From Eubacteriales bacterium (GTDB taxonomy: Bacteria > Bacillota > Clostridia > Oscillospirales > CAG-272), in the NCBI GenBank assembly GCA_045643765.1, contig JAZRFS010000153.1, positions 1 through 32,696 on the forward strand: a stretch of 32,696 bases of DNA. Direction: 5' to 3'. Of the stretch, positions 1,645 through 18,577 are shown one piece after another. Under the pieces are notes generated by a model. That model was given only the letters and a program-made list of their open reading frames with translations. It was not told the DNA's origin and made no database searches. How positions within the stretch are numbered: the first letter of the stretch is position 1; each line of letters starts with the position of its first letter. A program made the translations under genes and the position numbers.

Positions 1645-3609
1645 TCAGGTTTCGGGGATATTCGACATGCCGCCCGAGCGCACGTAGAAATAGCGTGCGG
1701 CGTACGCGCAACCGACGTTGAAATGGTCGTAGCAGGTCTGGAAATAGACCTCGCGCTTGCCGTATTCGCGGAAGAAGGGCTCGAACAAAAGGGCGGCCTC
1801 GCGGCGCTTGCCCTTAGAGGCAAGGGCGATGGGCTCGGCGATGCCGATCAGGAAATCAAGGTAGAAGTCCAGCAATCGCATCGAAACCGTCTGCGCGCGA
1901 TAGGGCATATTCTTGTGCGCTGCAAGGAAGGGCTTGAACGTGGCGGCGAAGCGACCAAGCTCGCGCACCTTTTGTGTCATTTCGGGGTTGTAAAGGCGGT
2001 GGAAGTCCTTGTCCTTGGACATCTTGCCTGCAAGGTACGCCTGCGGCACGATCTCGCCAAGCTTCACAAGGAAGTCCTGCACCTCACGCCAGTCCTCGCC
2101 GTAAGCGTGGCGGCAATAGTCCTCTACCAGCTCGTCAAAGTTGACGTTCACGTCGAAAAGGGTTGCCGCGTAGGCGTAGAAGGGCAGACCGTGCGGCCAG
2201 TAGGAGCGCTGGCTGCCGTCCTGAATGATGCCGTGGAAGCCGTGGGCGTAGTAGCCCTTGACGTCCTCGTGCAGAATGCGCGCGTAGCCCACGTTGCCGG
2301 GGTTGTAGTACTGATTGTGGCAGAAATGGTACTCGTAAAGGAAGGTGTTGACGTTGTACTGCTTCATCGAGGATTTTGCATAAGGAATATACTCGTCAAT
2401 GTCCAGCGGCAGTGTGATGTTGTTGTGCACAAACGGCACGTAGGGGAACTCCACGTCGTTGGGGTTCACCGAGCGGTGATACACGCGCGTGATGGGCGCG
2501 AAAAGCATCGTGAAGCGGTCGGGGTTTTGAATGTTCACCGTCTCCGACTTCCAGATCGTTTCGTAGTAGCAGATGAACACGATACGGGTGTTCAGCTTGC
2601 GGCGCGTCAGCTCCTCGTCGATCTCGTTCATCAGCATGATGTACCAGTCGGTCACGATCTTCTTGCGGCACTCCTCGCACTCGCAGTGGTTGTTGTAGAA
2701 GTCGGCAAGCCAGATGTGTAGATAGTCCACGTTGGTGTTCAGCTCGGAGTAGTCCGCCACGCTTTGCACCCACAGACGGCGCGTTTCGGGGTTGGACATA
2801 CACACGTTGGTATTCAGCGGCACGCCGTGGAAGAGCTGGCGCTCACCGTTCAGCATCGCCAGGTGCTGATAGGCCTCGGCAGGAATGCTTTCCTTGTCGC
2901 TTGCCACCCAGCCGAGCGAGGAGTTGATGCCGTAGGGCTCGGCGGTCCAGCCGTGACCCATATCGTGGTACTGCAAGCCGCGCTTACTGATCTCGCTTTC
3001 GCACTGGCGCTTCCACTGCAGCACGGTTTCCTCGCTGACGGGCTCGGGCTCGCGGTTGTCGTTGAACTTGTGGTTGTAGTAGTTGTCGTAGTACGCCTTG
3101 GGGTTGTCGAACTCCTGCATGAAGATGTTCATGCCGATCTTGGGCGTGAAGTCGATCGCCTCCATCATCTGCTGCTGATACTCGCCGCCCTCGTTGCACT
3201 GTCCGCGGTAGCGCATATCCGCCATCTTGTGATACTCGGTCGCCTCAATGTTCTTGGTGGGAATGAACTCGCCGTCCACACCGGGGAACAGCCATCGACA
3301 GCCGTTCATCGTGAGGTAACGGTACACGGCAAGCAGTACCGAACGGGGGTTGGAGCCGGCGATCACGCCGTTGCCGTTCTCGTCCACGTCGATGTGCAGA
3401 ATGTCGTCCAGCTCCAGGTCCTTTGCCTCGCTTGTGTCAAGGCAGAAGTCGGACATAAGCCCGAGGCAAAAGCCCTCGGTCGCGGTGGGGTCGAACTTGA
3501 TGCCGATCTCGCCGCAACGGGGCATCATCATGCGAAGATACTTTTTGAGTTCCTCGGCGGCAAAGTCTACAACGTGGTTGGAGGTGATTTTATTGATTTG
3601 ATACTTCAT
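1645..3609 (-). CDS. DUF4838-type glycoside-hydrolase-like protein, copy 1 (654 aa)
   Basis: ATG at 3609 (MKYQINKI) with AGGAG at 3616-3620. Motifs DFAAEELKKYL, GSNPRSVL, GCRWLFPG, HDMGHGW, CMSNP, HIWLAD, CECxxC, YEYHF are shared with six tandem paralogs; no signal peptide. Confidence 0.8.
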   Translation of the reverse strand: MKYQINKITSNHVVDFAAEELKKYLRMMMPRCGEIGIKFDPTATEGFCLGLMSDFCLDTSEAKDLELDDILHIDVDENGNGVIAGSNPRSVLLAVYRYLTMNGCRWLFPGVDGEFIPTKNIEATEYHKMADMRYRGQCNEGGEYQQQMMEAIDFTPKIGMNIFMQEFDNPKAYYDNYYNHKFNDNREPEPVSEETVLQWKRQCESEISKRGLQYHDMGHGWTAEPYGINSSLGWVASDKESIPAEAYQHLAMLNGERQLFHGVPLNTNVCMSNPETRRLWVQSVADYSELNTNVDYLHIWLADFYNNHCECEECRKKIVTDWYIMLMNEIDEELTRRKLNTRIVFICYYETIWKSETVNIQNPDRFTMLFAPITRVYHRSVNPNDVEFPYVPFVHNNITLPLDIDEYIPYAKSSMKQYNVNTFLYEYHFCHNQYYNPGNVGYARILHEDVKGYYAHGFHGIIQDGSQRSYWPHGLPFYAYAATLFDVNVNFDELVEDYCRHAYGEDWREVQDFLVKLGEIVPQAYLAGKMSKDKDFHRLYNPEMTQKVRELGRFAATFKPFLAAHKNMPYRAQTVSMRLLDFYLDFLIGIAEPIALASKGKRREAALLFEPFFREYGKREVYFQTCYDHFNVGCAYAARYFYVRSGGMSNIPET

Positions 3610-3631
3610 AACGTTCTCCTTATGTGTGTTC

Positions 3632-3825
3632 GTGGGGGTGCTTTTGGGAAAGCACCCCCACACCCCCGCAAAACCCTTTAAGGGTTTTATGGGTGAGTGC
3701 AATCAATGTGAATAGAGGCATAGTATGCTCGCAAACAATGCGGCTGCTGTTATTCCTTTTTGTTCAAAAAGTTTTGAGGGGGTCATAGGGGGAACTTTTT
3801 TAAAAGTTCCCCCTAACGCGTCCCC
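3632..3825. repeat. Family A palindromic doublet (REP/REPIN-like)
   Basis: Perfect hairpins 3632-3661 (13 bp) and 3786-3815 (14 bp), palindrome AAAACCCTT-T-AAGGGTTTT 3670-3688, core GCAAACAATGCGGCT 3731-3745; ends at stop codon 3826. Confidence 0.9.
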
Positions 3826-5859
3826 TTACGCGTTCGGGATGCCGCCGACGGTGTCGGTGTCCGGTATGCCGCCGACGGTCGCGCTGTTGTGTACCGTCTT
3901 GGGGTTTTCGGGGATCTGGTCGCGGCTCACGTAGAAATTCTTGTCACCGAAGATGTAGGAGATGTTCACGTAGTCGCAATACAGCTCAAACTCTGTTTCG
4001 GTCTTGATAAACTCGTCATAGGCATCGTGATAGGCGATCGCGGCACCGCGAATGTCCTCGCCCGTGGACGCCATGATAAGGGACTTGGATACGTTTTCCC
4101 AGAAGTCGATGTAGTTCAGCAACAGCTTCACGCATACCGTCTGGGGGCGTTTTTCGCGGTTGCGGTGTTCCTCAAGGAACGGGCGGAAGGCGCGGATCTT
4201 TTCGGGGATCTTGCAAAGCCCCTCGGTAAACGCGGGGTTGTAAAGGCGGCTGATCGTTTTGTCGATGCGCTCCTTGCCGTGCAGATACTTCATCGTGACG
4301 CACTTGCCAAGATCCTTCATAAAGTCGACCACCTCGCGCCAGATGTCGCCAAAGGCGTGGCGGTAGTAGTCCTCCACCATCGCGTCAAAGTCGGCGGCAT
4401 CGTCAAACAGCGTTTCCGCGTACACAAACAGATGGAAGCCATTGGGCCAGAAGTTGCGCTGGGTGCCGTCCTCGATGATGCCCTGGTACCCGTGGTGGCG
4501 GTACGCCTTGACGTCCTCGTGAATGAGGCGCGCGTAGTCCATATTGCCGGGGTTGGCATACTGGTTGGAGCAGAAGTGATACTCGTAAAGGAAGGAGGGC
4601 ACGCGGTATTGCTCGCGGCTCTCGGTCGCGTAGAGCAGATACTCGTCCACGGTGTCGGGGAAGCGCAGATCGTTGAGCTTATAGGTCATCTTCTCAAACT
4701 GCTTTGGCACAAGCGGTACGCACTCGTAATACTGGCGCGTGATGGGCGCGAAGAGCATCGAGAAGCGATCCGGCTTTTCCAGCTTGATGTCTTTGGCAGG
4801 GAAAATGGTCTCCGTGTAGCAGATAAACACGATACGGGTGGGCAAATTCCGCGCCGTCAGCTCCGTGTCAATGTCGTTCATCAGCGCGATGTACCAGTCG
4901 GACGGGAGCTTCGTGCGGCAGACCTCGCACTCGCACTGGTTGTTCCAGAAGTCGGCAAGCCACACGTGCAGAAAGTCCACGTTCTGATGATTTTCGGCAT
5001 AATCCGCGACCGAGCGCGCCACGATCTTGCGTGCCTCGGGGTTGGACATACAGAACTGTGTCACCAGCGGAGAGCCCTTGTAAAATCCGCGGCGGCCGTT
5101 CACCTCGGCAAGGTACTGGCGCGCACCCTCGGGAATGATGCTCTCGTCGCGCTCCGCCCAGCCCTCCGAGCTGTCGATGCCGAAGGGATTTGCCGTCCAA
5201 CCGTGTCCCACGTCGTGGAATTGAAGTCCGCGCTTTTCCAGCTCGCACTCGCACGCGCGCTTCCATTGGAGCGTGGTGTCCGCGTCGATCGGCTCGGGCA
5301 GGCGCGCGCCGGCGGTCTTCCAGCGGTCGTAGTAGCAGTTGTAGTACGCCTTGGGATTGACAAACTCGGTCATAAACACGTTCATGCCGAGCTTGGGCAC
5401 CAAGTCGATGGCGGCCAGCATGCTTTGCTGGAACTCCGCGCCCTCGTTACACCAACCGCGCACGCGGTTGTCTGCCATTTTTCGATACCGTACAGGGGTT
5501 AAATCGCAAACGGGGATATATTCGCCGTCCACGCCGGGCAGCAGCCAGCGGCAGCCCATCTCGCGCAGATAGCGGTAAGCGGCAAGCAGCACCGAGCGAG
5601 GGTTGGAGCCTGCGATGATGCCGCACGCGTTTTCGTCAACGTCAATGTAAAGGATATCGTCCAGAGTGAGGTCGGCGGCGTCGCTTGTGTCAAGCCCGAA
5701 TTCGGACATCAGCCCCCAGCACAGACCGTCCCTTTGATCCTTTTCGTACCCGATGCGGATGTTGCCCGCCTCGGGGCGCATCATGCGCAGATACTTTTTC
5801 AGTTCCTCGGCGGCGAAGTCCACCACCGTATGGGGGGTAATTTTATAAATTTGATACAT
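3826..5859 (-). CDS. DUF4838-type protein, copy 2
   Basis: Start set at ATG 5859 (MYQIYKI) by homology to paralog N-termini; same conserved motifs; duplicated TVGGIP tail. Confidence 0.8.
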   Translation of the reverse strand: MYQIYKITPHTVVDFAAEELKKYLRMMRPEAGNIRIGYEKDQRDGLCWGLMSEFGLDTSDAADLTLDDILYIDVDENACGIIAGSNPRSVLLAAYRYLREMGCRWLLPGVDGEYIPVCDLTPVRYRKMADNRVRGWCNEGAEFQQSMLAAIDLVPKLGMNVFMTEFVNPKAYYNCYYDRWKTAGARLPEPIDADTTLQWKRACECELEKRGLQFHDVGHGWTANPFGIDSSEGWAERDESIIPEGARQYLAEVNGRRGFYKGSPLVTQFCMSNPEARKIVARSVADYAENHQNVDFLHVWLADFWNNQCECEVCRTKLPSDWYIALMNDIDTELTARNLPTRIVFICYTETIFPAKDIKLEKPDRFSMLFAPITRQYYECVPLVPKQFEKMTYKLNDLRFPDTVDEYLLYATESREQYRVPSFLYEYHFCSNQYANPGNMDYARLIHEDVKAYRHHGYQGIIEDGTQRNFWPNGFHLFVYAETLFDDAADFDAMVEDYYRHAFGDIWREVVDFMKDLGKCVTMKYLHGKERIDKTISRLYNPAFTEGLCKIPEKIRAFRPFLEEHRNREKRPQTVCVKLLLNYIDFWENVSKSLIMASTGEDIRGAAIAYHDAYDEFIKTETEFELYCDYVNISYIFGDKNFYVSRDQIPENPKTVHNSATVGGIPDTDTVGGIPNA

Positions 5860-5869
5860 AGTGGGTGTC

Positions 5870-6048
5870 GTGAGGGAACTTTTCAGGAAAAGTTCCCTCA
5901 CACTCCTTTAAAAACTTTTAAACAATTTTAAGGTGTTACGATATTTTTCCGCTAACAACGCGGCTTCGCACCATTTCTTTTTTTGTAAAGGATTTTGAAA
6001 GGGGTTATAGGGGAAAACTTTGCAAAGTTTTCCCCTAACGCCTTCCCC
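5870..6048. repeat. Family A palindromic doublet
   Basis: Hairpins 5870-5901 (14 bp) and 6008-6037 (perfect palindrome); core GCTAACAACGCGGCT 5951-5965; abuts stop at 6049. Confidence 0.9.
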
Positions 6049-8055
6049 TTACTCGTTCGCGGTGGTGACGTCGCCGTCGTCGGTGTCGGCGGCGGTCTGT
6101 GCTTCGCTGCCGGGGAGGTTTGCCTCAGGCTTGTTAAACACGCCAAAGCTCCATGCCTGACCGCACATTGCCTGGTCGTACCAAAGCTCGATCTCGCACT
6201 CTTTCTTGCCGAACTCTGCCATAAACGCTTCGTACACGCGCTTTGCCTCGGCACCTGCGCCGTGCGCCTTGAGGATCAGGGCATCTGTGATGCCGTCCAC
6301 GTACTCGGTGTAGTAGCGCAGCAGCTTGTGCGCCACGGTCTGCGCGCGATAGGGCATCACACGGTGCGCCTCGATGAAGGGCGCGAACGCCTTGTTGATC
6401 TCCTTCACGGCGCGCATCGCCTCTCCCTTGGCGGGGTTGTAGCGCTTGGCCACGTTCATATCGGCGGAGCGCTTGCCCTGCACGAAGTAGGGATCGACCG
6501 CGCGGCCGATCTTCTGCATATAGTCAAGCACCTCGCGCCAGTCGGCACCGTAGGCGTGGGAGTAATAGTCCTCCAACAGCGCCTCAAAGGTAAGGGAGGT
6601 GTCAAATTGCAGCTGACCGTAGATAAAGAAGGGGAAGCCGTTGGGGAAGAAGGAGCGCTGCGAGCAGTCGTTAATCAGGCCCTGGAAGCCGTGCTTGCGG
6701 TAGTTCACGATGTCGGTCCAGACCTGCTTTGCGAAGGTCATCTGCCCCATATCGTAGTACTGGTGCATGTAGAAATGATACTCGTAAAGCATCATGCCCG
6801 CGTCGCACTGCTTTTTCCATTCGTTTGCGTGGTGAATGTATTGATGCACGTCGGTAAAGCTCTTGTTTTGATTGCGCTTGTAGGTGTTCAGCTCGACCTT
6901 CTCGGGCATCGGGTATTGCACGGGCTGGGTGTAATCACGGGAAATGGGGGCGGACATCAGCGTGAAGCGGCGCGGATTGTTCAGCTTTTCCGTGTCGGGC
7001 GCCCAGGTGGTGTCCACGTAGGAGATCAGCACCACACGCGTGTCAAGTCCTGCCGCCGTCAGCTCCTCGTCAATGTCGTTCATCACCATCACGTAGTAGT
7101 CGGAGGGGGATTTTTTCACGCACTCCTCGCACTCGCAGTGGTTGTTCCAGTAGTCCGCCAGCCACACGTGCAGATAGTCCACGTTGCGGTGTCCCTCGGC
7201 ATATTTTGCCACCGCCTTTGCCATGATGCGGCGTGCCTCGGGGTTGGACATGCAGATGTTGGTGGCAAGGGGCTTGCCGCGGAACAGCTCGCGCTTGCCG
7301 TTGATCTGTGCCATATACTGACGGGACGCCTCGGGCAGGAGAGATTGATCCGAGCCACCCCACGCGCAGGCGGAGTTGATGCCAAACGGATCGGCGCACC
7401 AGCCGTGTCCCATATCGTGGAACTGCAGGCCGCGCTTGCTGATCTCCGCCTCGCATTGGCGCTTGTATTGGAGTGCGGTCTGCTCGTTGATCGGCTCCGG
7501 CTCGCGCGCAGGATTGTGCGCGTGGTCGTGGTACTTGTCATAGTAGCCCTTGGGGTTGAAGAACTCCATCATAAAGATGTTCAGACCGATCTTGGGCGTG
7601 AAGTCGATCGCCTCCATCATGTCGCGCTGGAACTCCGCGCCCTCGTTGCACTGGCCGCGGTAGCGCATGTCCGCCATCTTGTGGTACTTCACGGGGACAA
7701 CGTCCTGCATCGGGATGTACTCGCCATCCACGCCGGGGAAGAGCCAGCGACAGCCGTTCTCCTGCAGATAACGGTAGACCGCAAGCAGCACCGAGCGCGC
7801 GTTCGAGCCGGCGATGATGCCGCCCTCTTTGTCCGTGTCGATGTGGACGATGTCGTCCAGCACGAGGTCGTCGGCTTCCGAGGTGTCAAGCCCGAAGTCG
7901 GACATCAAACCAAGGCGAAAGCCCTCGGTCGCCGCAGGATCGCGGGTGATGAAGATCTCGCCGCACTCCGGCATCATCATTCTTAAATATTTTTTCAGCT
8001 CCTCGGCGGCAAAGTCCACCGTCGGGTGAGATGTTATTTTCTTGATTGAATACAT
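6049..8055 (-). CDS. DUF4838-type protein, copy 3
   Basis: ATG 8055 (MYSIKKI) by paralog homology; all family motifs present. Confidence 0.8.
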   Translation of the reverse strand: MYSIKKITSHPTVDFAAEELKKYLRMMMPECGEIFITRDPAATEGFRLGLMSDFGLDTSEADDLVLDDIVHIDTDKEGGIIAGSNARSVLLAVYRYLQENGCRWLFPGVDGEYIPMQDVVPVKYHKMADMRYRGQCNEGAEFQRDMMEAIDFTPKIGLNIFMMEFFNPKGYYDKYHDHAHNPAREPEPINEQTALQYKRQCEAEISKRGLQFHDMGHGWCADPFGINSACAWGGSDQSLLPEASRQYMAQINGKRELFRGKPLATNICMSNPEARRIMAKAVAKYAEGHRNVDYLHVWLADYWNNHCECEECVKKSPSDYYVMVMNDIDEELTAAGLDTRVVLISYVDTTWAPDTEKLNNPRRFTLMSAPISRDYTQPVQYPMPEKVELNTYKRNQNKSFTDVHQYIHHANEWKKQCDAGMMLYEYHFYMHQYYDMGQMTFAKQVWTDIVNYRKHGFQGLINDCSQRSFFPNGFPFFIYGQLQFDTSLTFEALLEDYYSHAYGADWREVLDYMQKIGRAVDPYFVQGKRSADMNVAKRYNPAKGEAMRAVKEINKAFAPFIEAHRVMPYRAQTVAHKLLRYYTEYVDGITDALILKAHGAGAEAKRVYEAFMAEFGKKECEIELWYDQAMCGQAWSFGVFNKPEANLPGSEAQTAADTDDGDVTTANE

Positions 8056-8067
8056 TTGGATTGGTTG

Positions 8068-8289
8068 GCGGGGAAAACATTTTTTCAAAATTGTTTTCCC
8101 CGCACCCCTTTCAAAAAATCTTTGGGTATTTTATGGGTGTGTTATTTTAGTTTGTGCGCTGTGGGGAAGTGTATCGCAGATGCGGCACAATGCCATTTCC
8201 GCTATCAATGCGGCTGTGGAAAACCTTTTTGTGTAAAGTTTTTGGGGGTGTGGGGGCTTTTTTCAAAAAGCCCCCACATATCGTCCCCC
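8068..8289. repeat. Family A palindromic doublet
   Basis: Hairpins 8068-8103 and 8249-8278 (14 bp); GGCACAATGCC mini-hairpin plus core GCTATCAATGCGGCT within 8184-8215; abuts stop at 8290. Confidence 0.9.
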
Positions 8290-10251
8290 TTAGTTCTCCA
8301 CTGTGGGGACGGTCATTTCCTGAGAGGCAAAGACCTTATGCTCGAAGGCATAGTACATCATCCACTGGTCGTAGCAGGTTTCGATCTCGCACTCGTGGCG
8401 GCCGAACTCGGTTACGAATTCCTTCCACAGTTCCTTTGCCTCGGCACCCGCGCCAAAGCACTTCGGGATCAGGCACTTGGCAAGACCCACGCAGTACTCC
8501 ATGTAGTAGCGCAGGAGCTTGAACATCACGGTCTGTGCGCGGTAGGGCATCACGCGGTGTGCCTCCAGGAACGCCTTTGCCTCCTCGGCAATGGCAGGCA
8601 TCTTGCGGAATTCCTCGGCACAGGAGGGCGCGTAGCGCTTGTTGACCTTGAGGTCTGCGGAGCGGTGTCCCCAGAAGTAGCCGGGATCAAACGCGGTGCG
8701 GATCTTTTGGAAGATCTCCACAACGCCTTTCCAATCCTCGCCGTAGGCGTGGGAGAAGTAGTCCTCCATCAGCCACTCGTAGGTAAGGGAGGTGTCGAAC
8801 TGCAAAAGTCCGTAGATGTAGAAGGAGAAGCCGTTGGGCCAGAAGGGACGCTGCGAGCAGTCGTTAATCAGACCGTTCAGGCCGTGCTTTTTGTAGTTGA
8901 CAATGTCCTGATAGACCACCTTCGAGAAGTCGAGGGTGCTGGGATCAAAGTACTGGAATACGTAGAAGTGGTACTCGTAGAGCATCGCGGTGACGTTGCA
9001 CTGCTTTTGCCATTCCTGACCGACCTTGACGTACTGGTTCACGTCCTTGAACAGCTCGTTGTCGTTGCGCTTGTAGGCAGGATAGGTCACGTCCGAGATG
9101 TCCTCGCGCACGGGAACGGTGTAGTCGCGCGAGATAGGAGCGACCAGCAGCGAGAAGCGCTTGGGGTTGTCCAGCTTTGTCTCGATGGGCGGCCAGGAGG
9201 TGTCCACGTAGCAGATAAACACGATGCGCGTGTTCAGGCCCTTTTCTTCCAGCATCTTGTCCAGCTCGTTCATCATGATGACGTACCAGTCGGAGGGGAG
9301 CTTCTTCTGGCAGTTTTCGCACTCGCAATGGTTGTTCCAGCAGTCGGCAAGCCACACGTGCAGGAAGTCGACGTTCTGATGCTTTTCGGCGTAGTCCACG
9401 ATGGCGCGGTTCGAGATCTCGCGCGCCTTGGGGTTGGACATGCAGATGTTGGTGTCATAGATGCGCTGTCTGCCCTTGAACAGGCCGCGCTGACCGTCGG
9501 TGAGCGCGATATACTGCTGCATTTCCTCGGGGTAGTGGAGCGTCTTGTTGTCGTAGTCCTCGCGCGTCAGACCGAAGGGCTCGGCGGTCCAGCCGTGACC
9601 CATATCGTGGAATTGCAGACCTCTCTTGGAAATCTCTGCCTCGCACTGGCGCTTCCACTGTACGGTGGTGTGCAGCTCGGGGATCGGCTCGGGCTCGCGC
9701 GCAGGGTTGCCCGAATGGTTATAGTAGGAGTTATAGTAGGACTTCGGGTTGAAGAACTCGATCATGAACACGTTCATGTAGATCTTGGGCTGGAAGTCGA
9801 TGATCTCCATCATGTTGGGCTGGAATTCGGCACCCTCGTTGCACTGACCGCGGAAGCGGCAGTCTGCCATCTTGTGGTACTTGACCGCCACGATGTCCTG
9901 CATCGGGATAAACTCGCCGTCAATGCCGGGGAAGAGCCAGCGACAGCCGTTCTCCTGCAGATAGCGGTAGACCGCGAACAGCACGGAACGGGGGTTGGAG
10001 CCGGCAAGGATGCCGTTGCCGTTTTCGTCCACGTCCACGTGTACGATGTCGTCAAGCTCCACGTCAGCGGCTTCGCTCACGTCAAGCCCGAAGTCCTGCA
10101 TCAACCCCAGGCGCAAGCCCTCGGTGGCGTCAGGCGCGTACTTGATAAAGATCTCGCCTGCCTCGGGCATCATCATGCCCAGGTATTTTTTCAGTTCCTC
10201 GGCGGCGAAGTCCACCGTGGAGTTGGAGGTGATTTTGTTGATCTGGTACAT
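8290..10251 (-). CDS. DUF4838-type protein, copy 4 (653 aa)
   Basis: ORF track; AAAGGAG-AAAACACC-ATG start; family motifs. Confidence 0.82.
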   Translation of the reverse strand: MYQINKITSNSTVDFAAEELKKYLGMMMPEAGEIFIKYAPDATEGLRLGLMQDFGLDVSEAADVELDDIVHVDVDENGNGILAGSNPRSVLFAVYRYLQENGCRWLFPGIDGEFIPMQDIVAVKYHKMADCRFRGQCNEGAEFQPNMMEIIDFQPKIYMNVFMIEFFNPKSYYNSYYNHSGNPAREPEPIPELHTTVQWKRQCEAEISKRGLQFHDMGHGWTAEPFGLTREDYDNKTLHYPEEMQQYIALTDGQRGLFKGRQRIYDTNICMSNPKAREISNRAIVDYAEKHQNVDFLHVWLADCWNNHCECENCQKKLPSDWYVIMMNELDKMLEEKGLNTRIVFICYVDTSWPPIETKLDNPKRFSLLVAPISRDYTVPVREDISDVTYPAYKRNDNELFKDVNQYVKVGQEWQKQCNVTAMLYEYHFYVFQYFDPSTLDFSKVVYQDIVNYKKHGLNGLINDCSQRPFWPNGFSFYIYGLLQFDTSLTYEWLMEDYFSHAYGEDWKGVVEIFQKIRTAFDPGYFWGHRSADLKVNKRYAPSCAEEFRKMPAIAEEAKAFLEAHRVMPYRAQTVMFKLLRYYMEYCVGLAKCLIPKCFGAGAEAKELWKEFVTEFGRHECEIETCYDQWMMYYAFEHKVFASQEMTVPTVEN

Positions 10252-10327
10252 GGTGTTTTCTCCTTTGGGGATTTTGTGTGGGGGCGTCGCCCCCTACAGG
10301 GTTACACTTTGTTTGTTAGTCGCGGAT

Positions 10328-10543
10328 ACTACTCTTCCGTCGTCCTGCTTGCCTGTGGCAAGTGGCGGACGCCACCTTCCCTCACAAGGGAAGGCTAACA
10401 ATGTCCATAGTCTTATCAATGGACGGGATGTTTGATAAAAATTCAAGGAATAGATGTTATTGCCGTCTATTGCCAAGAAGCAACGAGTTAAGCGGCCTTC
10501 CCTTGTGAGGGAAGGGGGACCGCGTTAGCGGTGGATGAGTAGT
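10328..10543. repeat. Family B inverted doublet (ACTACTC...GAGTAGT) with CCTTCCC-type hairpins
   Basis: Perfect 21-bp inverted repeat 10375-10395 / 10495-10515, each arm itself a hairpin; terminal ACTACTC 10328-10334 / GAGTAGT 10537-10543; ACCGC-GTTA-GCGGT sub-hairpin; ~100 nt AT-rich spacer. Confidence 0.85.
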
Positions 10544-10545
10544 CG

Positions 10546-10732
10546 TGGCACAATGCCATTTCCGCTATCAACGCGGCTGTACGCTATTCCTTTTTTGATT
10601 AAAGGGTTTTCTGTTCTCGCCTTACGGCGAGCACGTCGATATGCCACTACGTGACAATCGCGGGGTGGGGGTGCGGGGGAGGCCTTTTATCAAAAGGTTT
10701 CCCCCGCAAAAAGTTCCCCTACACGCCTCCCC
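10546..10732. repeat. Family A half-element with nested family C insert
   Basis: Core TGGCACAATGCCATTTCCGCTATCAACGCGGCT 10546-10578; family C insert 10611-10660; hairpin 10673-10707; orphan arm AAAAAGTTCCCCTA 10708-10721; abuts stop at 10733. Confidence 0.8.
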
Positions 10733-12694
10733 TTAATAATCCACCAACGGGACGATGGTGGTGGTATTAGAGAACAGATAGGCGTTGTAGCCAAATGCCG
10801 CCATATACTGGTCGAAGCAGGTCTGGATCTCGCACTCGCGCGGACCGATCTCGGCAAGGAACTCTTGGAACAGCTCCGCCGCCTCGGGGCCGGCACCCAG
10901 ACACTTGGGGATCAGGCACTTGGCAAGTCCGCGGCAGAAATCCATATAGTAGCGCAGCAGCTTGAACATCACGGTCTGCGCGCGGTAGGGCATCACGCGG
11001 TGTTTCTCGATGAACTCGGCATACTCCTCGGTGATCTTCGGCACCTGACGGATCTCCTCGGCAACCGCAGGGTTGTAGCGCGAGGAGAGCTTGGGGCTGG
11101 CGCGGCGCTTGCCCTCCATGTATTTGACGTCCACCGCGTCACCGAGCTTACCGAACAGCTCTGCCACGGTGCGCCAATCCTCGCCGTAGGCGTGGGAGAA
11201 ATAGTCCTCCAACAGATCCTCGAATTTGAGCGAGGTGTCAAACTGTACCTGTCCGTACAGGAAGAAGGCAAATCCGTTGGGCCAGAAGCTGCGCTGCGAG
11301 CAGTCGTTGATCAGGCCGTTCAGACCGTGCTTTTTGTAGTTGATGATGTCATCGTAGACCACGCGCGCGAACTTGAATACGCCCAGATCCATGTACTGAT
11401 GGACGTAGAAGTGATACTCGTAGAGCATCGCGCGCACGCCGCACTTTTCCTGCCATTCCTGACCGACCTTGACATACTGATCCGCGCTTTTGAACAGCTC
11501 GTTTGCATTGTGCTGATAAGCAGGGTAGGTCACGTCCGAGATGTCGGCGCTGACGGGCACGGTGTAGTTGCGCGAGATGGGAGCCACCAGCAGTGTGAAG
11601 CGCTTGGGGTTGTCCAATCTTGCCTCGATGGGCGGCCAGGAGGTGTCTACGTAGCAGATGAACACGATGCGCGTGTTCAGTCCCTTTGCCTCCAGCATCT
11701 GATCCAGCTCGTTCATCATGATGACGTACCAGTCGGAGGGGGTCTTCTTGCGGCACTCGTCACACTCGCAGTGGTTGTTGAAGTGGTCGGCAAGCCATAC
11801 GTGCAAGAAGTCCACGTTCTTGTGGTTCACGGCGTAGTCTACGATCGCGTTGTTTGCGATCTCGCGCGCCTTGGGGTTGGACATGCAGATGTTGGTGGTG
11901 TAGGTGTTGGGGTTGGTGGGGCAAAGTCCGCGGCGGCCGCCCATCATTGCGATCAGAGGCAGCATATCCTCGGGGTAGGGGCAATCGTCCGCCGAGAGCG
12001 CCTGCTCTGCCTTCACGCCGAAGGGCTCGGCGCACCAGCCGTGTCCCATATCGTGGAACTGCAAGCCGCGCTTGCTGATCTCCGCCTCGCACTGGCGCTT
12101 GTATTGCAATGCGGTGCGGTCGTCGATCGGCTCTTTTTCGCGCGTGGGATTGAATTTGTGGTTGTAGTAGGAGTTGTAGTAGCCGCGCGGATTGAAGAAT
12201 TCGACCATGAAGATGTTCAGGCCGATCTTGGGCGTGAAGTCGATGACCTCCATCATGTTGGACTGGAACTCGGCGCCCTCGTTGCACTGACCGCGGAAGC
12301 GGCAGTCCGCCATCTTGTGATACTTGACGGCTTTGATGTCCTGCATCGGGATAAACTCACCGTCGATGCCGGGGAAGAGCCAGCGGCAGCCGTTCTCCTG
12401 CAAGTAGCGGTAGACCGCGAACAGCACGGAACGGGGGTTGGAGCCCGCCAGCACGCCGTTGCCGTTTTCGTCCACGTCCACGTGCACGATGTCGTCAAGC
12501 TCGACGTCCTCGGCTTCGCTTGTGTCAAGACCGAAGTCCTGCATCAACCCAAGGCGCAAGCCCTCGGTCGCGTCCGCGTCACGGGTGATGAAGATCTCAC
12601 CGCACTCGGGCATCATCATTCTTAAATATTTTTTCAGCTCCTCGGCGGCAAAATCCACCGTGGGATTGGAGGTAATTTTCTTGATTTGATACAT
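10733..12694 (-). CDS. DUF4838-type protein, copy 5 (653 aa)
   Basis: ORF track; family motifs; most similar to copy 4. Confidence 0.82.
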   Translation of the reverse strand: MYQIKKITSNPTVDFAAEELKKYLRMMMPECGEIFITRDADATEGLRLGLMQDFGLDTSEAEDVELDDIVHVDVDENGNGVLAGSNPRSVLFAVYRYLQENGCRWLFPGIDGEFIPMQDIKAVKYHKMADCRFRGQCNEGAEFQSNMMEVIDFTPKIGLNIFMVEFFNPRGYYNSYYNHKFNPTREKEPIDDRTALQYKRQCEAEISKRGLQFHDMGHGWCAEPFGVKAEQALSADDCPYPEDMLPLIAMMGGRRGLCPTNPNTYTTNICMSNPKAREIANNAIVDYAVNHKNVDFLHVWLADHFNNHCECDECRKKTPSDWYVIMMNELDQMLEAKGLNTRIVFICYVDTSWPPIEARLDNPKRFTLLVAPISRNYTVPVSADISDVTYPAYQHNANELFKSADQYVKVGQEWQEKCGVRAMLYEYHFYVHQYMDLGVFKFARVVYDDIINYKKHGLNGLINDCSQRSFWPNGFAFFLYGQVQFDTSLKFEDLLEDYFSHAYGEDWRTVAELFGKLGDAVDVKYMEGKRRASPKLSSRYNPAVAEEIRQVPKITEEYAEFIEKHRVMPYRAQTVMFKLLRYYMDFCRGLAKCLIPKCLGAGPEAAELFQEFLAEIGPRECEIQTCFDQYMAAFGYNAYLFSNTTTIVPLVDY

Positions 12695-12704
12695 GGTGTT
12701 TTAC

Positions 12705-12858
12705 GCGGGAAAACTTTTGGGAAAGTTTTCCCGCACCCTTTCAAAACCCTTTATATAAGGGGTATTTTGGTGTGCGTTGATTTTTAGCTTGTGTTGTTTT
12801 TTATAAGTTTTGAGGGGTTGTAGGGGAATTTTCCTAAAAGTTCCCCTAACGCCTCTCC
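12705..12858. repeat. Family A palindromic doublet (no core motif)
   Basis: Hairpins 12705-12734 (13 bp) and 12821-12848 (imperfect); abuts stop at 12859. Confidence 0.88.
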
Positions 12859-14826
12859 TTAGTCGGCCTCGAAGAAGGTCTTGGCAGAGCAAAGGATACG
12901 GTTCCAGGAGGAGTATGCCATACGCTGATCGAAGTAGGTGCCGATCTCAAACTCGTGGCGGCCGAACTTGTTTTCCATGGGGCGGAACTTTTCCACGACC
13001 TCGGGGTCTGCGCCCAGTGCCTTGAGCGTCCAGATCTCGGCAAGGTCGGTGACGTACTCCATGTGGTAGCGGATCAGCTTCATGGACACGGTCTGTGCGC
13101 GGTAGGGCATCACCTTGTGAGATTCAAAGATGGGGGCGTACTTTGCCACGATGTCCTTGACGGCACGGAAGCGCTTGGCGTGCGCGGGAGAGTAGTAGCC
13201 GGCGGCGGGCTGATCGCCGCCCTTGTTGGCGTCGCGCTTGGCGCCGTCCATGATGTATGCCATATCAAACGCCTCGGTGATTTCGGTGAGGTAGGCGATC
13301 ACGTCGTCCGCGATCTCGCCAAAGGCGTGGGTGAAGTAGTCGCGCTTGATCTCCTCCAGGTCTGCCTTGGTGTCAAACAGGGTTTCCGCGTAGGTAAGGA
13401 AGTGATAGCCGGTGGGGAAGAAGCTGCGCTGCGAGCCGTCCTGAATGAGGCCGTTGAAGCCGTGCTTGTAGTAGCCCTTCACGTCGTCGTGAATGAGCTT
13501 TGCGAACTGCATCGAGCCGGGATCGCGGTACTGGTGCAGCCAGAAGTGATACTCGTATACCATCGTGGGAATGTCGGCTGCCTTCTTCCACGCCTGACCG
13601 TGCAGAATGTACTCCTCAACGGTCTTGGGGAAGGTGCCGTGCTTGTTCAGCTGGAAGGGTGTCAGCTTGATCTTGGGCAGCTCCTGCGGTACGGGGGAGG
13701 TGTAAACGCGGGTAATGGGGGCGAGGAGGAAGGAGAAGCGCTTGGTGTTCTTGATCTTTTCCTCAAGAGGTGCCCATGTGGTGTCGGTGTAGCAGATAAA
13801 CACGATGCGGGTTTCCAGCGCTCTTTCGGTGAGAAGCTCGTCGATCTCGTTCATCAGCATCACGTACCAGTCGGAGGGCGTCTTCTTACGGCACTCGGCG
13901 CACTCGCAGTGGTTGTGCGAGCCGTCGGCAAGCCAGACGTGCAGATAGTCTGCATTCTGGTGCTTGTAGGCGTACTCCGTGACGTACTTGGCAACGATGC
14001 TGCGCGCCTCGGGATTGGACATGCAGAACTGGGTGTTCGGCGCCACGCCGCCCCACAGCTCTCGCACGCCGTCAAGCTCGGCAAGGTACTGGCGCGCGTT
14101 TTCCAGATTGGGCTGCTTGCCCTCTACCCAACCGTCGGAGGAGTCAAGACCGAAGGGCTCGGCGGTCCAGCCGTGTCCCATGTCGTGGAACTGGAGGGAG
14201 CGCTTGGAAAGCTCTGCCTCGCACTGGCGCTTCCACTGCTTGGTGGTGACGGCGGTGACGGGCTCGGCAGCGCGGTTGCCGTGGTTGTGGTTGGCGTTGT
14301 AGTAGAAGTCGTAGTACGCCTTGGGGTTATCGAACTCCATCATGAACACGTTCATGCCGATCTTGGGCTGGAAGTCGATGATCTCCATCATGTTGGGCTG
14401 ATACTCGCCACCCTCGTTGCACTGACCGCGGTAGCGGCAGTCAGCCATCTTGTGGTACTTGGTGGGCTTTACGTCCTGCATCGGGATATACTCGCCGTCC
14501 ACACCGGGGAAGAACCAGCGGCAGCCGTTCTCGCGCAGATAGCGGTATACAGAAAGCAGCACGGAGCGATGGTTGGAGCCGGCGATGATGCCGTTCTCGC
14601 CATCGGTGTCCACGTGCAGAATATCATCAAGGAACAGATCCTCCGCTTCGCTTGTGTCAAGCCCGAAGTCGGACATAAGCCCTAAGCGCAGACCGTCCTT
14701 TGCGTCGGGGGCGTATTCGATGAAGATCTCGCCGCACTCGGGCATCATCATTCTCAAATACTTTTTCAGCTCCTCGGCGGCAAAGTCCACCGTGGGGTGG
14801 GAGGTGATCTTGTAAATCTTGTACAT
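12859..14826 (-). CDS. DUF4838-type protein, copy 6 (655 aa)
   Basis: ORF track; AAGGAG upstream of ATG; family motifs. Confidence 0.82.
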   Translation of the reverse strand: MYKIYKITSHPTVDFAAEELKKYLRMMMPECGEIFIEYAPDAKDGLRLGLMSDFGLDTSEAEDLFLDDILHVDTDGENGIIAGSNHRSVLLSVYRYLRENGCRWFFPGVDGEYIPMQDVKPTKYHKMADCRYRGQCNEGGEYQPNMMEIIDFQPKIGMNVFMMEFDNPKAYYDFYYNANHNHGNRAAEPVTAVTTKQWKRQCEAELSKRSLQFHDMGHGWTAEPFGLDSSDGWVEGKQPNLENARQYLAELDGVRELWGGVAPNTQFCMSNPEARSIVAKYVTEYAYKHQNADYLHVWLADGSHNHCECAECRKKTPSDWYVMLMNEIDELLTERALETRIVFICYTDTTWAPLEEKIKNTKRFSFLLAPITRVYTSPVPQELPKIKLTPFQLNKHGTFPKTVEEYILHGQAWKKAADIPTMVYEYHFWLHQYRDPGSMQFAKLIHDDVKGYYKHGFNGLIQDGSQRSFFPTGYHFLTYAETLFDTKADLEEIKRDYFTHAFGEIADDVIAYLTEITEAFDMAYIMDGAKRDANKGGDQPAAGYYSPAHAKRFRAVKDIVAKYAPIFESHKVMPYRAQTVSMKLIRYHMEYVTDLAEIWTLKALGADPEVVEKFRPMENKFGRHEFEIGTYFDQRMAYSSWNRILCSAKTFFEAD

Positions 14827-14869
14827 GACTTTGTTCTCCTTTTTCAGGGTGATATATTTTTATTTTTTA

Positions 14870-16834
14870 TTATACGTCAAAGGTCAGGTTTTCCTTGCGC
14901 TTGAAGATGCGGTGGGAGAGCGCCCAGGTGGCAAGGAAATGATCGTAGCAGGTGGCGATCTCGTGCTCGCGGCGACCGAAGTCCGCCTGGAATTTGGCAA
15001 ACAGCTCCTTTGCCTCAGCGCCTGCGCCGAATGCCTTGGGAATGAGGCACTTGACGATACTTTCGCAGTATTCCATATAGTAGCGCAACAGCTTGTACGC
15101 TACGGTCTGCGCGCGATAGGGCATCACGCGGTGCGCTTCAAGGAAGTCCTTGTATTCTGCGGCGACCTTCGGCATCTCGCGCAGCTCGTCGGCAACTGCA
15201 GGGTTGTAGTGCTTGCCGATCTCTCTGTTCGCGGAGCGCTCACCGTTGAGGTAATGCGTGTCGATGCTCTTGCCGATCTTCTCAAGCAGGGTAAGCACCT
15301 CTTTCCAGTCCGCGCCGTAGGCGTGGGAGAAGTAGTCCTCGACCAAGTCCTCAAACTTGAGGGACGTGTCAAACTGCACCTGTCCGTACACGGTAAAGGC
15401 GAAGCCGTTCGGCCAAAAAGAGCGTTGCGAGCAGTCGTTGATCAGGCCGTTGAAGCCGTGCCTGTGGTAATTCTGAATATCGTCATAGATCACACGGGCA
15501 AAATCCAGCACGCCAAGGTCAAGATACTGTGCCAGCCAGAAGTGATACTCGTAAAGCATCGCAGGCACGCGGCAGCACTCCTGCCAGTCCTTCGCGCACT
15601 TGATATAGGGCGCCACGGTGGGGAACATCGTGAGGTTGTTGCGCACGTAAGGCGTGTAGGTCGCGTCCGAAACGTCTGCAGGCACGCTTTGCGTATAGCT
15701 GCGCGAGATGGGCGCGGAGAGAAGCGAAAAGCGCTTCGGGTTTTTGACGCGCTCGACAAGCGGCGGCCACGCCGTGTCCATATAGGAGATAAACACGATA
15801 CGCGTGGCAAGCTCGCGCGCCGTAAGGGCGGCGTCCAGCTCGTTCATCAGCATCACGTAGTAGTCGGAGGGGATCATCTTTTGGCATTCCTCGCACTCGC
15901 AGTGGTTGTTCGAGGAGTCCGCCAGCCACACGTGCAGATAGTCCACGTTCTGGTGCAGGTGGGCGTAATTCACGATGTAATCGACCACAAGCTTGCGCGC
16001 ACGCGCGTTGGACATACAGAACTGCGTGTTCATCGGGCCGCGGAAGTGCACCTTGCGCTCGCCGTTCAGCATCGCAAGGAACTCGCGGCTTTCGGGCGGC
16101 ACGGGTGCCTCGCCGCCCTTGTCCTCGCCGTGCTTCCAGCGGTAGGCGGTGTCCATGCCGAAGGGCTCGGCGGTCCAGCCGTGTCCCATGTCGTGGAACT
16201 GCAAGCCGCGCTTTGAGATCTCCGCCTCGCACTGGCGCTTCCATTGTACCATCTGCTCCGCGGTGACGGGCTCTGCATCGCGCGCGGGATTGTTCATCGC
16301 GCTGTAATAGCGGTTGTAATAGACGTACGGGCAGGCAAATTCCAGCATAAAGACGTTCATGCCGATCTTGGGCGTGAAGTCGATGGCCCCCATCATGTTG
16401 GGCTGATATTCCGCGCCCTCGTTGCACTGACCGCGGTAGCGCATGTCCGCCATTTTGTGGTACTTGACCGCCACGATGTCCTGCATCGGAACGTACTCGC
16501 CGTCAATGCCGGGGAAGAGCCAGCGGCAGCCGTTTTCCTGTAAGTAGCGGTACACGGCAAACAGCACCGAGCGCGGATTGGAGCCGGCAAGCACGCCGTT
16601 GCCCGCATCGTCCACGTCCACGTGCACGATGTCGTCAAGCTCCACGTCGTCGGCTTCGCTTGTATCAAGCCCGAAGTCCTGCATCAACCCCAGGCGTAAG
16701 CCATCGGTTGCAGCGGGATCGCGGGAGATGAAGATCTCGCCCGCCTCGGGCATCATCATTCTTAAATATTTCTTCAGCTCCTCGGCGGCGAAATCCACCG
16801 TCGGGTGTGCGGTTATTTTCTTGATTGAATACAT
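14870..16834 (-). CDS. DUF4838-type protein, copy 7
   Basis: ATG 16834 (MYSIKKI) by paralog homology; family motifs. Confidence 0.8.
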   Translation of the reverse strand: MYSIKKITAHPTVDFAAEELKKYLRMMMPEAGEIFISRDPAATDGLRLGLMQDFGLDTSEADDVELDDIVHVDVDDAGNGVLAGSNPRSVLFAVYRYLQENGCRWLFPGIDGEYVPMQDIVAVKYHKMADMRYRGQCNEGAEYQPNMMGAIDFTPKIGMNVFMLEFACPYVYYNRYYSAMNNPARDAEPVTAEQMVQWKRQCEAEISKRGLQFHDMGHGWTAEPFGMDTAYRWKHGEDKGGEAPVPPESREFLAMLNGERKVHFRGPMNTQFCMSNARARKLVVDYIVNYAHLHQNVDYLHVWLADSSNNHCECEECQKMIPSDYYVMLMNELDAALTARELATRIVFISYMDTAWPPLVERVKNPKRFSLLSAPISRSYTQSVPADVSDATYTPYVRNNLTMFPTVAPYIKCAKDWQECCRVPAMLYEYHFWLAQYLDLGVLDFARVIYDDIQNYHRHGFNGLINDCSQRSFWPNGFAFTVYGQVQFDTSLKFEDLVEDYFSHAYGADWKEVLTLLEKIGKSIDTHYLNGERSANREIGKHYNPAVADELREMPKVAAEYKDFLEAHRVMPYRAQTVAYKLLRYYMEYCESIVKCLIPKAFGAGAEAKELFAKFQADFGRREHEIATCYDHFLATWALSHRIFKRKENLTFDV

Positions 16835-16846
16835 TTGGTTGGGTGT

Positions 16847-16977
16847 TGTGAGGAAACTTTTTGCAAAAAGTTTCCTCACACTCCTTCAAAAAATTTTGGG
16901 GTGATTGATGTTTTTTGGGGGTAATAAGAAATGTTTCGCTAACAATTCGGCTATTTGCAAGCTGGGGAAACGCTCTC
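16847..16977. repeat. Family A single-hairpin element
   Basis: Perfect 34-nt palindrome 16847-16880, degenerate core GCTAACAATTCGGCT 16938-16952, remnant GGGGAAACGCTCTC next to stop at 16978. Confidence 0.8.
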
Positions 16978-18297
16978 TTATTTCAGCGCGTCAAGCAGCA
17001 CACGGGTGGCTTCTACCATCTTGTCCTTGGTGCCGTATCCCAGCTGACCTGCGTAGTAGCGGCCGCCGTAAGCGGTGCTGCCGAGCGTGCTGTCGGGGGG
17101 AATGTAGCCGAAACGGCCGTTCGTCTGCTCGCTTATAAGTATCTTCTTTTCGGGCGCGACTGCCTTCATGGCAAGACCGATCTCGGTGTAAAGCTCACCG
17201 GGAACGGTAAGGATCGTCCAGTCGCCCAGGCGCATGCCGACCGTTTCCATTTCGATCGTGGTGGGGGCGGTGGGATCGTAGGAAAGAACGCTCTCCATCA
17301 CGCGGCGCTCGCCGCCATAAAGGCGCTCGCCCGCGTCCTCGCGTGCCTTGGTCTTTTGTGCCGCCTCGGTTTCCCATGCGGCCGGCACGCGCGTTTGGTA
17401 GGTGTCGGTGTGAGAGATCGCGCGCACGTCGGGAGTGCAAGCACAGGTCTTGATATTTTTATTGATGCCGACCACCGTTTCGGTCAGCAGCTTGCCCATC
17501 TCCTCGGGCATATAGGTGGTACCGGAGGCGTACTTTTCGCTCACGCCGCTTTTGTAGTTGTAGGCGTTTACGTCACCGCAAGCACCGTTGAGGAAGACCA
17601 CTACCACGTCCTGCCCGTAGATCATCTTCAGATTTTCGCGCAGGTAACCGATAAAGTCTGAGGAGAAGTGCGTGCTCTTGGTGTTATCGTTGTCGGGGTG
17701 GTTGGCGTAGTTGACAAGGAACGCGGCGGGCTCGCCGTCAGCGCCGTCCACGCGCATCACGTGCACGTCATAGTCCACCGTGCCGAGGTACCCGACGATG
17801 CGGTCCTTCGCCGCCTTGCCGGGAATGGAACGGATCGTGCCGTCGTCCAGAATGCAATCGCGGTTGAAGCTCATACGCTTCTCCTCGCCCTTGCCCGTGC
17901 CGATGGCAAAGCCGTCCTTCATGCTCTCGAACGCTTCCACGGCAACCTTGACGATGCCGTCGTCGGTGTATTTTGCCACGTACGGCTCGCCGGGCGCGCC
18001 ACTGTTGTCCTCGTAGCCCGATGCACCCGTGTGGGTGTGGGTAGCGGCGATCAGAATATTCGATACGGGCACGCCCGTTTTCTCGCTGATGCGCGCGCGC
18101 AGATCGTCTGCGCGGTCGGTGAAGATGCCAAGCGCATCCACGGAAACGAGGATGACGCTCTCCTTTTCCCCTGCAAACGCCGCGGCGTTTGCGAAAAGAG
18201 GGCAGCGCGCTTCGCCGCGCGCCCAGTAGGGCAGGCCCTCACCGGGCATAAAGCCCTCGATGGGGGTCACGTCAAATTGTGCAAATCCTGCTTTCAT
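16978..18297 (-). CDS. Neutral/alkaline ceramidase-like amidohydrolase, copy 1 (439 aa)
   Basis: Motifs ATHTHTG, SFNR, NYANHPD, FLNGACGDVN, PGELY, GYIP typical of the neutral/alkaline non-lysosomal ceramidase N-terminal-domain family; AGGAG RBS; no signal peptide. Confidence 0.75.
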   Translation of the reverse strand: MKAGFAQFDVTPIEGFMPGEGLPYWARGEARCPLFANAAAFAGEKESVILVSVDALGIFTDRADDLRARISEKTGVPVSNILIAATHTHTGASGYEDNSGAPGEPYVAKYTDDGIVKVAVEAFESMKDGFAIGTGKGEEKRMSFNRDCILDDGTIRSIPGKAAKDRIVGYLGTVDYDVHVMRVDGADGEPAAFLVNYANHPDNDNTKSTHFSSDFIGYLRENLKMIYGQDVVVVFLNGACGDVNAYNYKSGVSEKYASGTTYMPEEMGKLLTETVVGINKNIKTCACTPDVRAISHTDTYQTRVPAAWETEAAQKTKAREDAGERLYGGERRVMESVLSYDPTAPTTIEMETVGMRLGDWTILTVPGELYTEIGLAMKAVAPEKKILISEQTNGRFGYIPPDSTLGSTAYGGRYYAGQLGYGTKDKMVEATRVLLDALK

Positions 18298-18344
18298 AAT
18301 GGGTTCTCCTTTGGGTGCGATGGATTTTAATTTTCGGAGGTGGA

Positions 18345-18557: not shown

Positions 18558-18577
18558 AACAATAAACAATGCGGTTA

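Follow-up and report, generated by a model that had tools for sequence, protein, structure and literature searches.

Repetitive extragenic palindromic (REP) and REPIN elements are short, GC-rich, imperfect palindromes that occur in tens of copies, are strictly intergenic, lie mostly after stop codons and often form inverted pairs. Bacterial and phage translation initiation regions can be divided by stem-loops. In phage T4, a stem-loop brings the Shine-Dalgarno sequence (SD) of gene 38 from 22 to 5 nucleotides (nt), and that of gene 25 from 27 to 11 nt, from the start (Nivinskas et al. 1999; Malys and Nivinskas 2009, as summarised in PMC3014915). In Escherichia coli, the account given in PMC7297116 has a stable stem-loop splitting the initiation regions of rpmE and thrS into two cooperating parts. 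Here we analyse a 32,696-nt stretch of DNA from a Eubacteriales bacterium (contig JAZRFS010000153.1; hereafter the window), in which four tandem DUF4838-like genes are preceded by an SD-like purine run, the hairpin of a multi-copy intergenic repeat, a short spacer without an SD and the ATG, in that order.

A first-pass annotation of this DNA had proposed that the repeat was co-opted as a structure-bridged ribosome-binding site or else damps particular paralogues, and had invoked the T4 precedent, which is real and comprises genes 38 and 25 in the summary cited above. We find that a hairpin-bridged SD supplied by the repeat is the best explanation of these leaders, one that we favour tentatively on the strength of sequence comparisons, and that it applies most credibly to the repeat subtype whose flank reads GGAG. 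Split initiation regions are known already from T4; what would be new is the repeat-borne, multi-gene, cellular version, for which we found nothing relevant in the open-access literature.

Leader architecture and start codons of the array genes

The window is an entire contig (C153) of a draft genome that we label G000 (1.78 Mb, 212 contigs, 54.9% G+C, 83% complete) and in which genes were called with a crude open-reading-frame and codon caller. G036, G045 and G048 denote sister species, of which G036 and G045 are the nearest to G000, and G001 a more distant congener. Positions 1645–16834 of the minus strand carry seven tandem DUF4838-like paralogues of 653–677 amino acids with pairwise identities of 47–73%. 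The four genes of interest are:

3826–5859, minus strand: DUF4838-like copy 2, 677 amino acids, start ATG 5859 (PF16126, E value 7.7e-13; paralogue alignment)
6049–8055, minus strand: DUF4838-like copy 3, 668 amino acids, start ATG 8055 (paralogue alignment)
10733–12694, minus strand: DUF4838-like copy 5, 653 amino acids, start ATG 12694 (paralogue alignment)
14870–16834, minus strand: DUF4838-like copy 7, 654 amino acids, start ATG 16834 (domain search and paralogue alignment)

In all four, the ATG lies 10–12 nt 3' of a hairpin of 30–36 nt, and an SD-like purine run ends 0–1 nt 5' of that hairpin. Read from 5' to 3', the leaders are composed as follows:

5903–5909, minus strand: SD-like flank of copy 2, GGAG type, 1 nt from the hairpin
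5870–5901, minus strand: hairpin of the copy 2 leader, 14 bp, −20.3 kcal/mol, GAGG/CCUC-type stem
5860–5869, minus strand: spacer of copy 2, 10 nt, A/C-rich, without an SD, followed by ATG 5859
8105–8111, minus strand: SD-like flank of copy 3, GGGG type, 1 nt from the hairpin
8068–8103, minus strand: hairpin of the copy 3 leader, −19.6 kcal/mol, followed by a 12-nt spacer (8067–8056) and ATG 8055
12736–12741, minus strand: SD-like flank of copy 5, GGG (three G only), 1 nt from the hairpin
12705–12734, minus strand: hairpin of the copy 5 leader, −18.2 kcal/mol, followed by a 10-nt spacer (12704–12695) and ATG 12694
16881–16886, minus strand: SD-like flank of copy 7, GGAG type, directly abutting the hairpin
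16847–16880, minus strand: hairpin of the copy 7 leader, −19.5 kcal/mol, GAGG/CCUC-type stem, followed by a 12-nt spacer (16846–16835) and ATG 16834

Reading of the sequence together with a hairpin finder reproduced exactly the four hairpin positions and the order of elements reported in the first-pass annotation, as well as its observation that the flanks of copies 2 and 7 read GGAG and not GGGG. Its claim that the sole SD-like motif lies upstream of the hairpin also holds, as none of GGAG, GAGG and AGGA occurs within the four A/C-rich spacers. In the linear sequence the SD-like run ends 41–49 nt before the ATG. The hairpins comprise 13–15 bp with predicted energies of −18 to −20 kcal/mol, and the 67-nt leaders (n = 4) fold at −21.8 to −24.4 kcal/mol (z-scores of −3.7 to −4.7), with none of 200 shuffles as stable. 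The spacer is predicted to be open, with a probability of being unpaired of 0.68–0.84.

The remaining array members, copies 1, 4 and 6, have ordinary SDs. Two of them serve as contrast cases:

10252–10266, minus strand: SD of copy 4 (10266–10260) and its 8-nt spacer, followed by ATG 10251
3632–3661, minus strand: repeat hairpin before copy 1, with ATG 3609 located 22 nt further on and an ordinary SD in between

Copy 4 is, as had been noted from the outset, the closest paralogue of copy 5 (73% amino acid identity). Two details had escaped the earlier reading: the copy 4 leader also contains a short G5/C5 palindrome (10294–10280), and copy 1 combines a full repeat copy with an SD of its own.

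Sequence alignment indicates that the ATGs of the array genes are the real starts. The seven paralogues and their homologues in the three sister genomes align from the array methionine, with synonymous differences among the first codons, copies 4 and 5 have open frames that extend no further 5' than the ATG, and the G048 homologue has a canonical SD at the normal distance 5' of the homologous ATG. We also considered initiation at in-frame GTG or TTG codons inside the hairpin, which would render the annotated ATGs internal: in copies 2, 7 and 3 the open frame does run on into the hairpin, to GTG 5901, GTG 16879 and TTG 8088, respectively, and the GTG comes after the GGAG flank. This GTG, however, follows the SD-like run by just 1–2 nt, sits within a stem of about −20 kcal/mol and, by hand count, lies in another frame in the copy 2 orthologue of G045 and is missing from that of G036. 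Neither the alignment from the methionine nor the frames of copies 4 and 5 fit such starts, and we consider them exceedingly improbable; the possibility, which the first-pass annotation had itself raised, is rejected given that the GTG or TTG is not kept in frame or in presence among orthologues and that the GTG is buried in the stem. Gene finders that score SDs at a fixed distance would mis-rank starts of this kind, and three of the four open frames extend into the hairpin.

On a codon-preference index built on the commonest codons of G000, which is not a calibrated expression measure, all seven paralogues fall at the 93rd–100th percentile. Such codon usage argues against silent or strongly damped copies and points to well-expressed genes in need of a working start.

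The repeat family and its leaders without a Shine-Dalgarno sequence

As the earlier reader had supposed, the hairpins belong to a repeat, an intergenic palindrome with 68 loci in the draft genome. An iterated nhmmer profile gave 134 matches at an E value of 0.01 or better with both strands counted, corresponding to 76 places of which 68 have a solid hairpin; profiles were used throughout for the repeat, an alignment of 15 window copies made with MAFFT being out of register. The 5' flank of the repeat is a run of A followed by GGGG, or by GGAG in one subtype, and the repeat unit reaches about 60 nt past the hairpin on one side. Thirty-nine copies are placed just after stop codons, 13 precede starts in the sense orientation and the placement of 16 is unclear. 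Oriented by the flank, the 39 3'-placed copies have the end of a convergent gene within 2–62 nt, mostly about 10 nt; seen from that convergent gene, the order is stop codon, hairpin and the C-rich complement of the flank. The window contains examples of this commoner placement, together with leader copies outside the array:

6008–6037, plus strand: 3'-placed repeat copy, hairpin 11 nt past the copy 3 stop, in the opposite orientation
3786–3815, 8248–8279, 10672–10708 and 12821–12848, plus strand: further 3'-placed repeat copies of the same kind
23487–23517, minus strand, and 28652–28681, plus strand: leader repeat copies outside the array, each followed by its own SD (hairpin and repeat census)

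The distance from stop codon to hairpin in the 3' copies is nearly fixed at about 10 nt, as seen at the window stops 3826, 6049, 8290, 10733 and 12859 and on many contigs, and in many unrelated genes the outer stem seems to incorporate the stop codon itself, which is mostly TAA. A canonical terminator is often found further downstream of these copies, and a terminator consensus scan of 3500–17100 flagged none of the repeat hairpins as Rho-independent terminators. Rfam gave no match at gathering score across the whole window, the only hit for 10200–10760 being a chance-level miRNA match (E value 0.56), and inspection by eye together with a consensus scan revealed no convincing sigma-70 promoter within the repeat or the central spacer.

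The 13 leader copies in G000 fall into two classes, six with an ordinary SD and seven without. The hairpin-to-ATG distance is 9, 10, 10, 10, 12, 12 and 13 nt in the seven SD-less leaders, whose spacers contain no GGAG, GAGG or AGGA, and 22–31 nt where an SD follows the hairpin. Besides the four array genes, the SD-less class includes a beta-lactamase-like gene (C49), a DUF370 gene (C84) and mnmE (C101). The hairpins of the leader copies range from −17 to −25 kcal/mol.

We then followed the repeat into related genomes. BLAST with one window spacer detected it in 5 of the 31 genomes sampled, G000 among them, with G036 and G045 being rich in it (34 and 23 matches); the census of copies in these two species is a BLAST-seeded sample of 39 fetched regions and is not exhaustive. 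The copy 2 and DUF370-gene leaders are kept in G045 and G036, and the SD-less repeat leader of mnmE is kept in G048, G045 and G036. Orthologues of the beta-lactamase-like gene in G045 and G036 (87% and 82% identity) retain the flank, the hairpin and a 10–13 nt spacer, again without an SD. Further 5' of the conserved leaders, the sequence has diverged. Eleven further SD-less leaders were found in the sister genomes, with hairpin-to-ATG distances of 10–15 nt by hand count. Alignment of the 18 SD-less leaders from the four genomes gives a consensus stem of 14 pairs, seven of which show changes on both sides that preserve pairing. More distant congeners add unrelated genes to the list, a TatD-like gene in G013 and a sugar-kinase-like gene in G001, named by eye from their first residues. 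The proposal that the repeat was co-opted as a bridged ribosome-binding site thus gains from its recurrence at three unrelated genes and from orthologous leaders kept in three sister species with compensatory changes.

Within G000, a GGAG ending no more than 2 nt from the stem is found in four of the seven SD-less leaders (copies 2 and 7, C49 and C84) and in one of the 61 other copies; a hypergeometric calculation by hand gives about 2e-4 for this contrast, under a definition that was chosen post hoc and with copies that are not independent. All four share the GAGG/CCUC stem change and so make up a subfamily, yet the copy 2 and copy 7 genes are only 48% identical. Among the sampled G045 and G036 copies, the subtype occurs only at SD-less, ATG-adjacent sites, namely copy 2 and the DUF370 gene in both species and the copy 1 orthologue in G045. 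Two cases of change in place were identified. For the beta-lactamase-like gene, a GGAG flank in G000 corresponds to GGGG in both G045 and G036. For copy 1, the G000 and G036 leaders combine a GGGG flank with a separate SD, and the G045 leader has GGAG and lacks an SD.

The genomic background was defined using an SD consensus derived from G000's own genes, as no 16S rRNA from which to read the anti-SD was found in G000, G036, G045, G048 or G022, nor by motif look-up. GGAG or GAGG lies 4–11 nt upstream in 398 of 608 unambiguous ATG genes (65%, or 73% with AGGA counted), which identifies G000 as an SD user. These 4-mers end mostly 6–9 nt before the start, with counts dropping to 22, 12, 5 and 2 at 11, 12, 13 and 14 nt. 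Genes with no SD at 3–13 nt make up a quarter of the set (152 of 603). A −10-like box ending 3–12 nt before the ATG is present in 23 of these 152 and in 2 of 454 SD genes, an excess indicating that leaderless starts exist in G000, where leaderless mRNAs seem to form a regular class. The four window leaders do not belong to it, having the hairpin and an A/C-rich spacer in place of a −10 box.

For mnmE, the comparison was extended across the genus. A search for TrmE_N was positive in 38 of 40 genomes; of the 30 loci retrieved, 14 have an ordinary SD, 10 a hairpin without a canonical SD, three the order SD, hairpin and ATG, and three, in addition to G000, the repeat. The SD–hairpin–ATG cases (L033, L041 and L036, from G050, G049 and G001) consist of a canonical SD, an unrelated 5-bp hairpin, 7–11 nt and the ATG, implying that a split layout similar to that of T4 gene 38 arose independently within the genus.

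Several other sequence elements accompany the repeat. Another repeated sequence, about 45 nt long and containing a small hairpin, lies in the loop of, or beside, copies of the first, giving nested repeats: at 10611–10640 (minus strand) by 10672–10708 in the window, at C142:6879–6898 and C117:319–336 in G000, and also at about L053:1354–1399 and in L057, L099, L107 and L108. In the G045 orthologue of copy 1, this second repeat splits the hairpin. Each array spacer also holds, between two inverted repeat copies, a conserved motif of about 35 nt made up of a small stem and a second short hairpin (about 3735–3760, 5955–5990, 8185–8225, 10560–10600 and 16945–16965, all on the minus strand), which likewise adjoins many 3' repeat copies elsewhere in G000. 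This motif may serve as operator or promoter or may belong to the repeat unit, and it gave no convincing sigma-70 match. The spacer between copies 5 and 4 is unusually long (480 nt) and contains a structured, G/C-rich motif of about 70 nt, at 10318–10400 and 10495–10530 (minus strand), that recurs 5' of repeat copies on C142, C134, C35, C199, C106 and C1 and has no Rfam match. Unrelated to the repeat, a strong SD followed by an 8-bp hairpin, 9 nt and an ATG at C90:4409 (plus strand) of G000 may, from its layout, be another bridged start. Among neighbouring genes, 16978–25437 (minus strand) encodes a second tandem family, five paralogues of 439–568 amino acids with weak neutral/alkaline-ceramidase N-terminal matches, conserved N-termini and ordinary SDs, and the DUF4838-like family is expanded further in G036 (12 matches).

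Weighing a proposed hairpin-bridged ribosome-binding site

The repeat and its 9–13 nt A/C-rich right flank abut the ATG where an ordinary SD would be expected. We envisage that the stem of 13–15 bp would stay folded and loop out 30–36 nt, so that the SD-like flank, 0–1 nt from the base of the stem, would be brought to within 9–14 nt of the AUG. The flank could then pair with the 3' end of the 16S rRNA with the unstructured spacer lying in the mRNA channel, and the outcome would be a split ribosome-binding site as in T4 gene 25. Measured by hand across the folded hairpin, the run-to-AUG distance is 9–12 nt in eight GGAG-type leaders and 11–16 nt in ten GGGG-type leaders. The GGAG subtype would be the better-adapted version, combining full SD complementarity with the shorter folded spacing. 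We infer that the flank is present in the transcript, that it is used by the 30S subunit and that the hairpin is needed for this use.

A number of observations weigh against such bridging. The SD-like flank is the repeat consensus in all placements, being present in all 68 copies including the 39 after stops, such that its presence before a start is in itself no evidence of co-option. The window copies have a folded spacing of 11–13 nt, which is at the margin of the SD range of G000; spacings of the GGAG type occupy the upper tail of this range and those of the GGGG type mostly lie beyond it. Minimum-energy folds pair the flank partly and weakly with upstream or spacer bases (probability of the flank being unpaired 0.30–0.49), and palindromic repeats show compensatory stem changes in any event. 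The outcome of the genome-wide test of GGAG enrichment that the earlier note had suggested depends on how the flank is defined: the contrast described above used a narrow, post hoc definition, and when the flank is defined broadly as GGAG or GAGG anywhere in the 18 nt 5' of the stem, four of seven SD-less leaders and 14 of 61 other copies qualify (Fisher p = 0.07, not significant). The contrast fades in this case because many copies read GAGGGG. Moreover, the GGAG flank always comes with the GAGG/CCUC stem change, which bridging does not explain; this linkage suggests a repeat subfamily spread by copying. The four array genes do not represent four independent events of one kind. In G001, where the GGAG type is the common form, no such copy adjoins an ATG; a terminator, a promoter or an ordinary SD follows instead. 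Finally, SD–hairpin–ATG layouts are not in excess across the genome once the repeat is set aside: GGAG, GAGG or AGGA lies just 5' of the hairpin in 3 of 25 SD-less genes with a hairpin ending 4–16 nt before the ATG.

Many of these points are those expected if the flank plays no part, and initiation would then be SD-independent beside a generic REP-like element that happened to replace the SD region. The repeat might act, for example, as an mRNA-stabilising or insulating hairpin, with the ribosome loading on the open, G-poor spacer of 9–13 nt and the start of the coding sequence. We regard this as the main rival and a real possibility. The missing SD is by itself unremarkable in a genome where SD-less genes are common and SD-independent initiation is available, and the spacer and start are predicted to be open. 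In ten congeners, mnmE lacks a canonical SD and begins 11 nt past a terminator-like hairpin that is unrelated to the repeat and is followed by a U-rich spacer, so that a hairpin just 5' of a start is evidently tolerated without a good SD; this, together with the consensus nature of the flank, the GGGG-type spacings and the G001 contexts, sits comfortably with a passive element. What such an element does not predict is the restriction of the GGAG subtype to SD-less, ATG-adjacent sites in G000, G045 and G036, with its two changes in place. It accounts for the confinement of the hairpin-to-ATG distance to 9–15 nt in 18 leaders only through a fixed length of the right flank, and a weak start fits poorly with the top-percentile codon usage of the paralogues. 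The leaderless-like route apparently taken by 23 of the 152 SD-less genes is in turn closed to leaders that contain the hairpin.

The hairpin could alternatively be a regulatory or damping device that lowers or conditions translation, for instance through a protein binding to the palindrome or, on read-through transcripts, through pairing of the flank with the inverted repeat copy past the upstream stop, which would hide the flank. Each window spacer does contain two inverted repeat copies, about 100–190 nt apart and with mutually complementary flanks, many of the hairpins are near-perfect palindromes resembling dimer-binding sites, and ordinary SDs were kept in copies 1, 4 and 6 but not in copies 2, 3, 5 and 7. 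Codon bias is, however, equally strong in all seven paralogues whether or not they have the hairpin layout, and the suggestion that particular paralogues are damped therefore fits poorly. The layout is also found at housekeeping genes such as mnmE, and we identified no candidate binding protein or ligand and no Rfam family. We judge regulation improbable as the main role of the hairpin.

A hairpin-bridged SD accordingly remains our preferred explanation of the individual leaders. A broader scenario, that a copy-spreading or mobile palindromic repeat with its own ribosome-binding module replaced ordinary SDs at at least six unrelated gene families in one clade of a genus that is uncultured, has small genomes and looks Firmicutes-like, with the GGAG subtype tuned for the job, is compatible with the comparative data, and we consider it doubtful. 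Were the repeat to carry a ribosome-binding module, it would represent the first repeat-borne, cellular split SD and a natural 'portable insulated RBS' (ribosome-binding site), hairpin-bridged initiation would cease to be a phage peculiarity and become a solution that cells have used repeatedly, and one route would be revealed by which selfish or structural intergenic repeats enter gene expression signals. A self-folding module that keeps a ribosome-binding site working regardless of upstream sequence would also be of interest for construct design. Should initiation instead be SD-independent, these loci would form a clean natural set for studying such initiation right behind a strong hairpin.

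Comparison with described systems

The STAB-SD of Bacillus thuringiensis cryIIIA, reportedly described by Agaisse and Lereclus in 1996, is said to be an SD-like purine run in the 5' leader, linearly far from the start, and is thought to bind the 30S subunit and thereby protect the 5' end, with cryIIIA keeping its own SD at the start. The G000 leaders differ in having no second SD.

With respect to REP and REPIN elements, the G000 repeat is likewise a multi-copy, short, GC-rich, imperfect palindrome that is confined to intergenic DNA, mostly follows stop codons and frequently forms inverted pairs, and its 3' copies often have a TAG-containing tetranucleotide beside the stem. It differs in that its unit continues for about 60 nt past one end of the hairpin and in that a subset of copies lies in 5' leaders, abutting starts. 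No Y1 (RAYT) transposase (PF01797) was found in any of five genomes (G000, G036, G045, G048 and G003), which are drafts of 78–98% completeness and leave its absence unproven. The G000 repeat behaves like a REP-type element and is at most a putative member of that family.

In rpmE and thrS, as described in the account cited above (PMC7297116), the hairpin is a repressor-binding operator situated between an AU-rich enhancer and a start-adjacent SD, whereas in the G000 leaders it is the SD-like run itself that lies 5' of the hairpin.

The closest parallel is with T4 genes 38 and 25, so far as they are summarised in PMC3014915. In both systems the SD lies at too great a linear distance from the AUG, no SD is present at the normal distance, a stem-loop intervenes and the structure is conserved among close relatives only; the folded spacing of the GGAG type (9–12 nt) is comparable with the 11 nt of gene 25. 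The looped-out hairpin is about twice as long in G000 (30–36 nt against about 16–17 nt), and the folded spacing spans 9–16 nt in the repeat leaders and 5–11 nt in T4. Support for the T4 cases comes from mutants, reporters and probing, and for the G000 leaders from sequence comparison. Finally, the hairpin and the SD-like run in G000 both belong to a multi-copy genomic repeat, and the genes that they precede are cellular and in several cases mutually unrelated.

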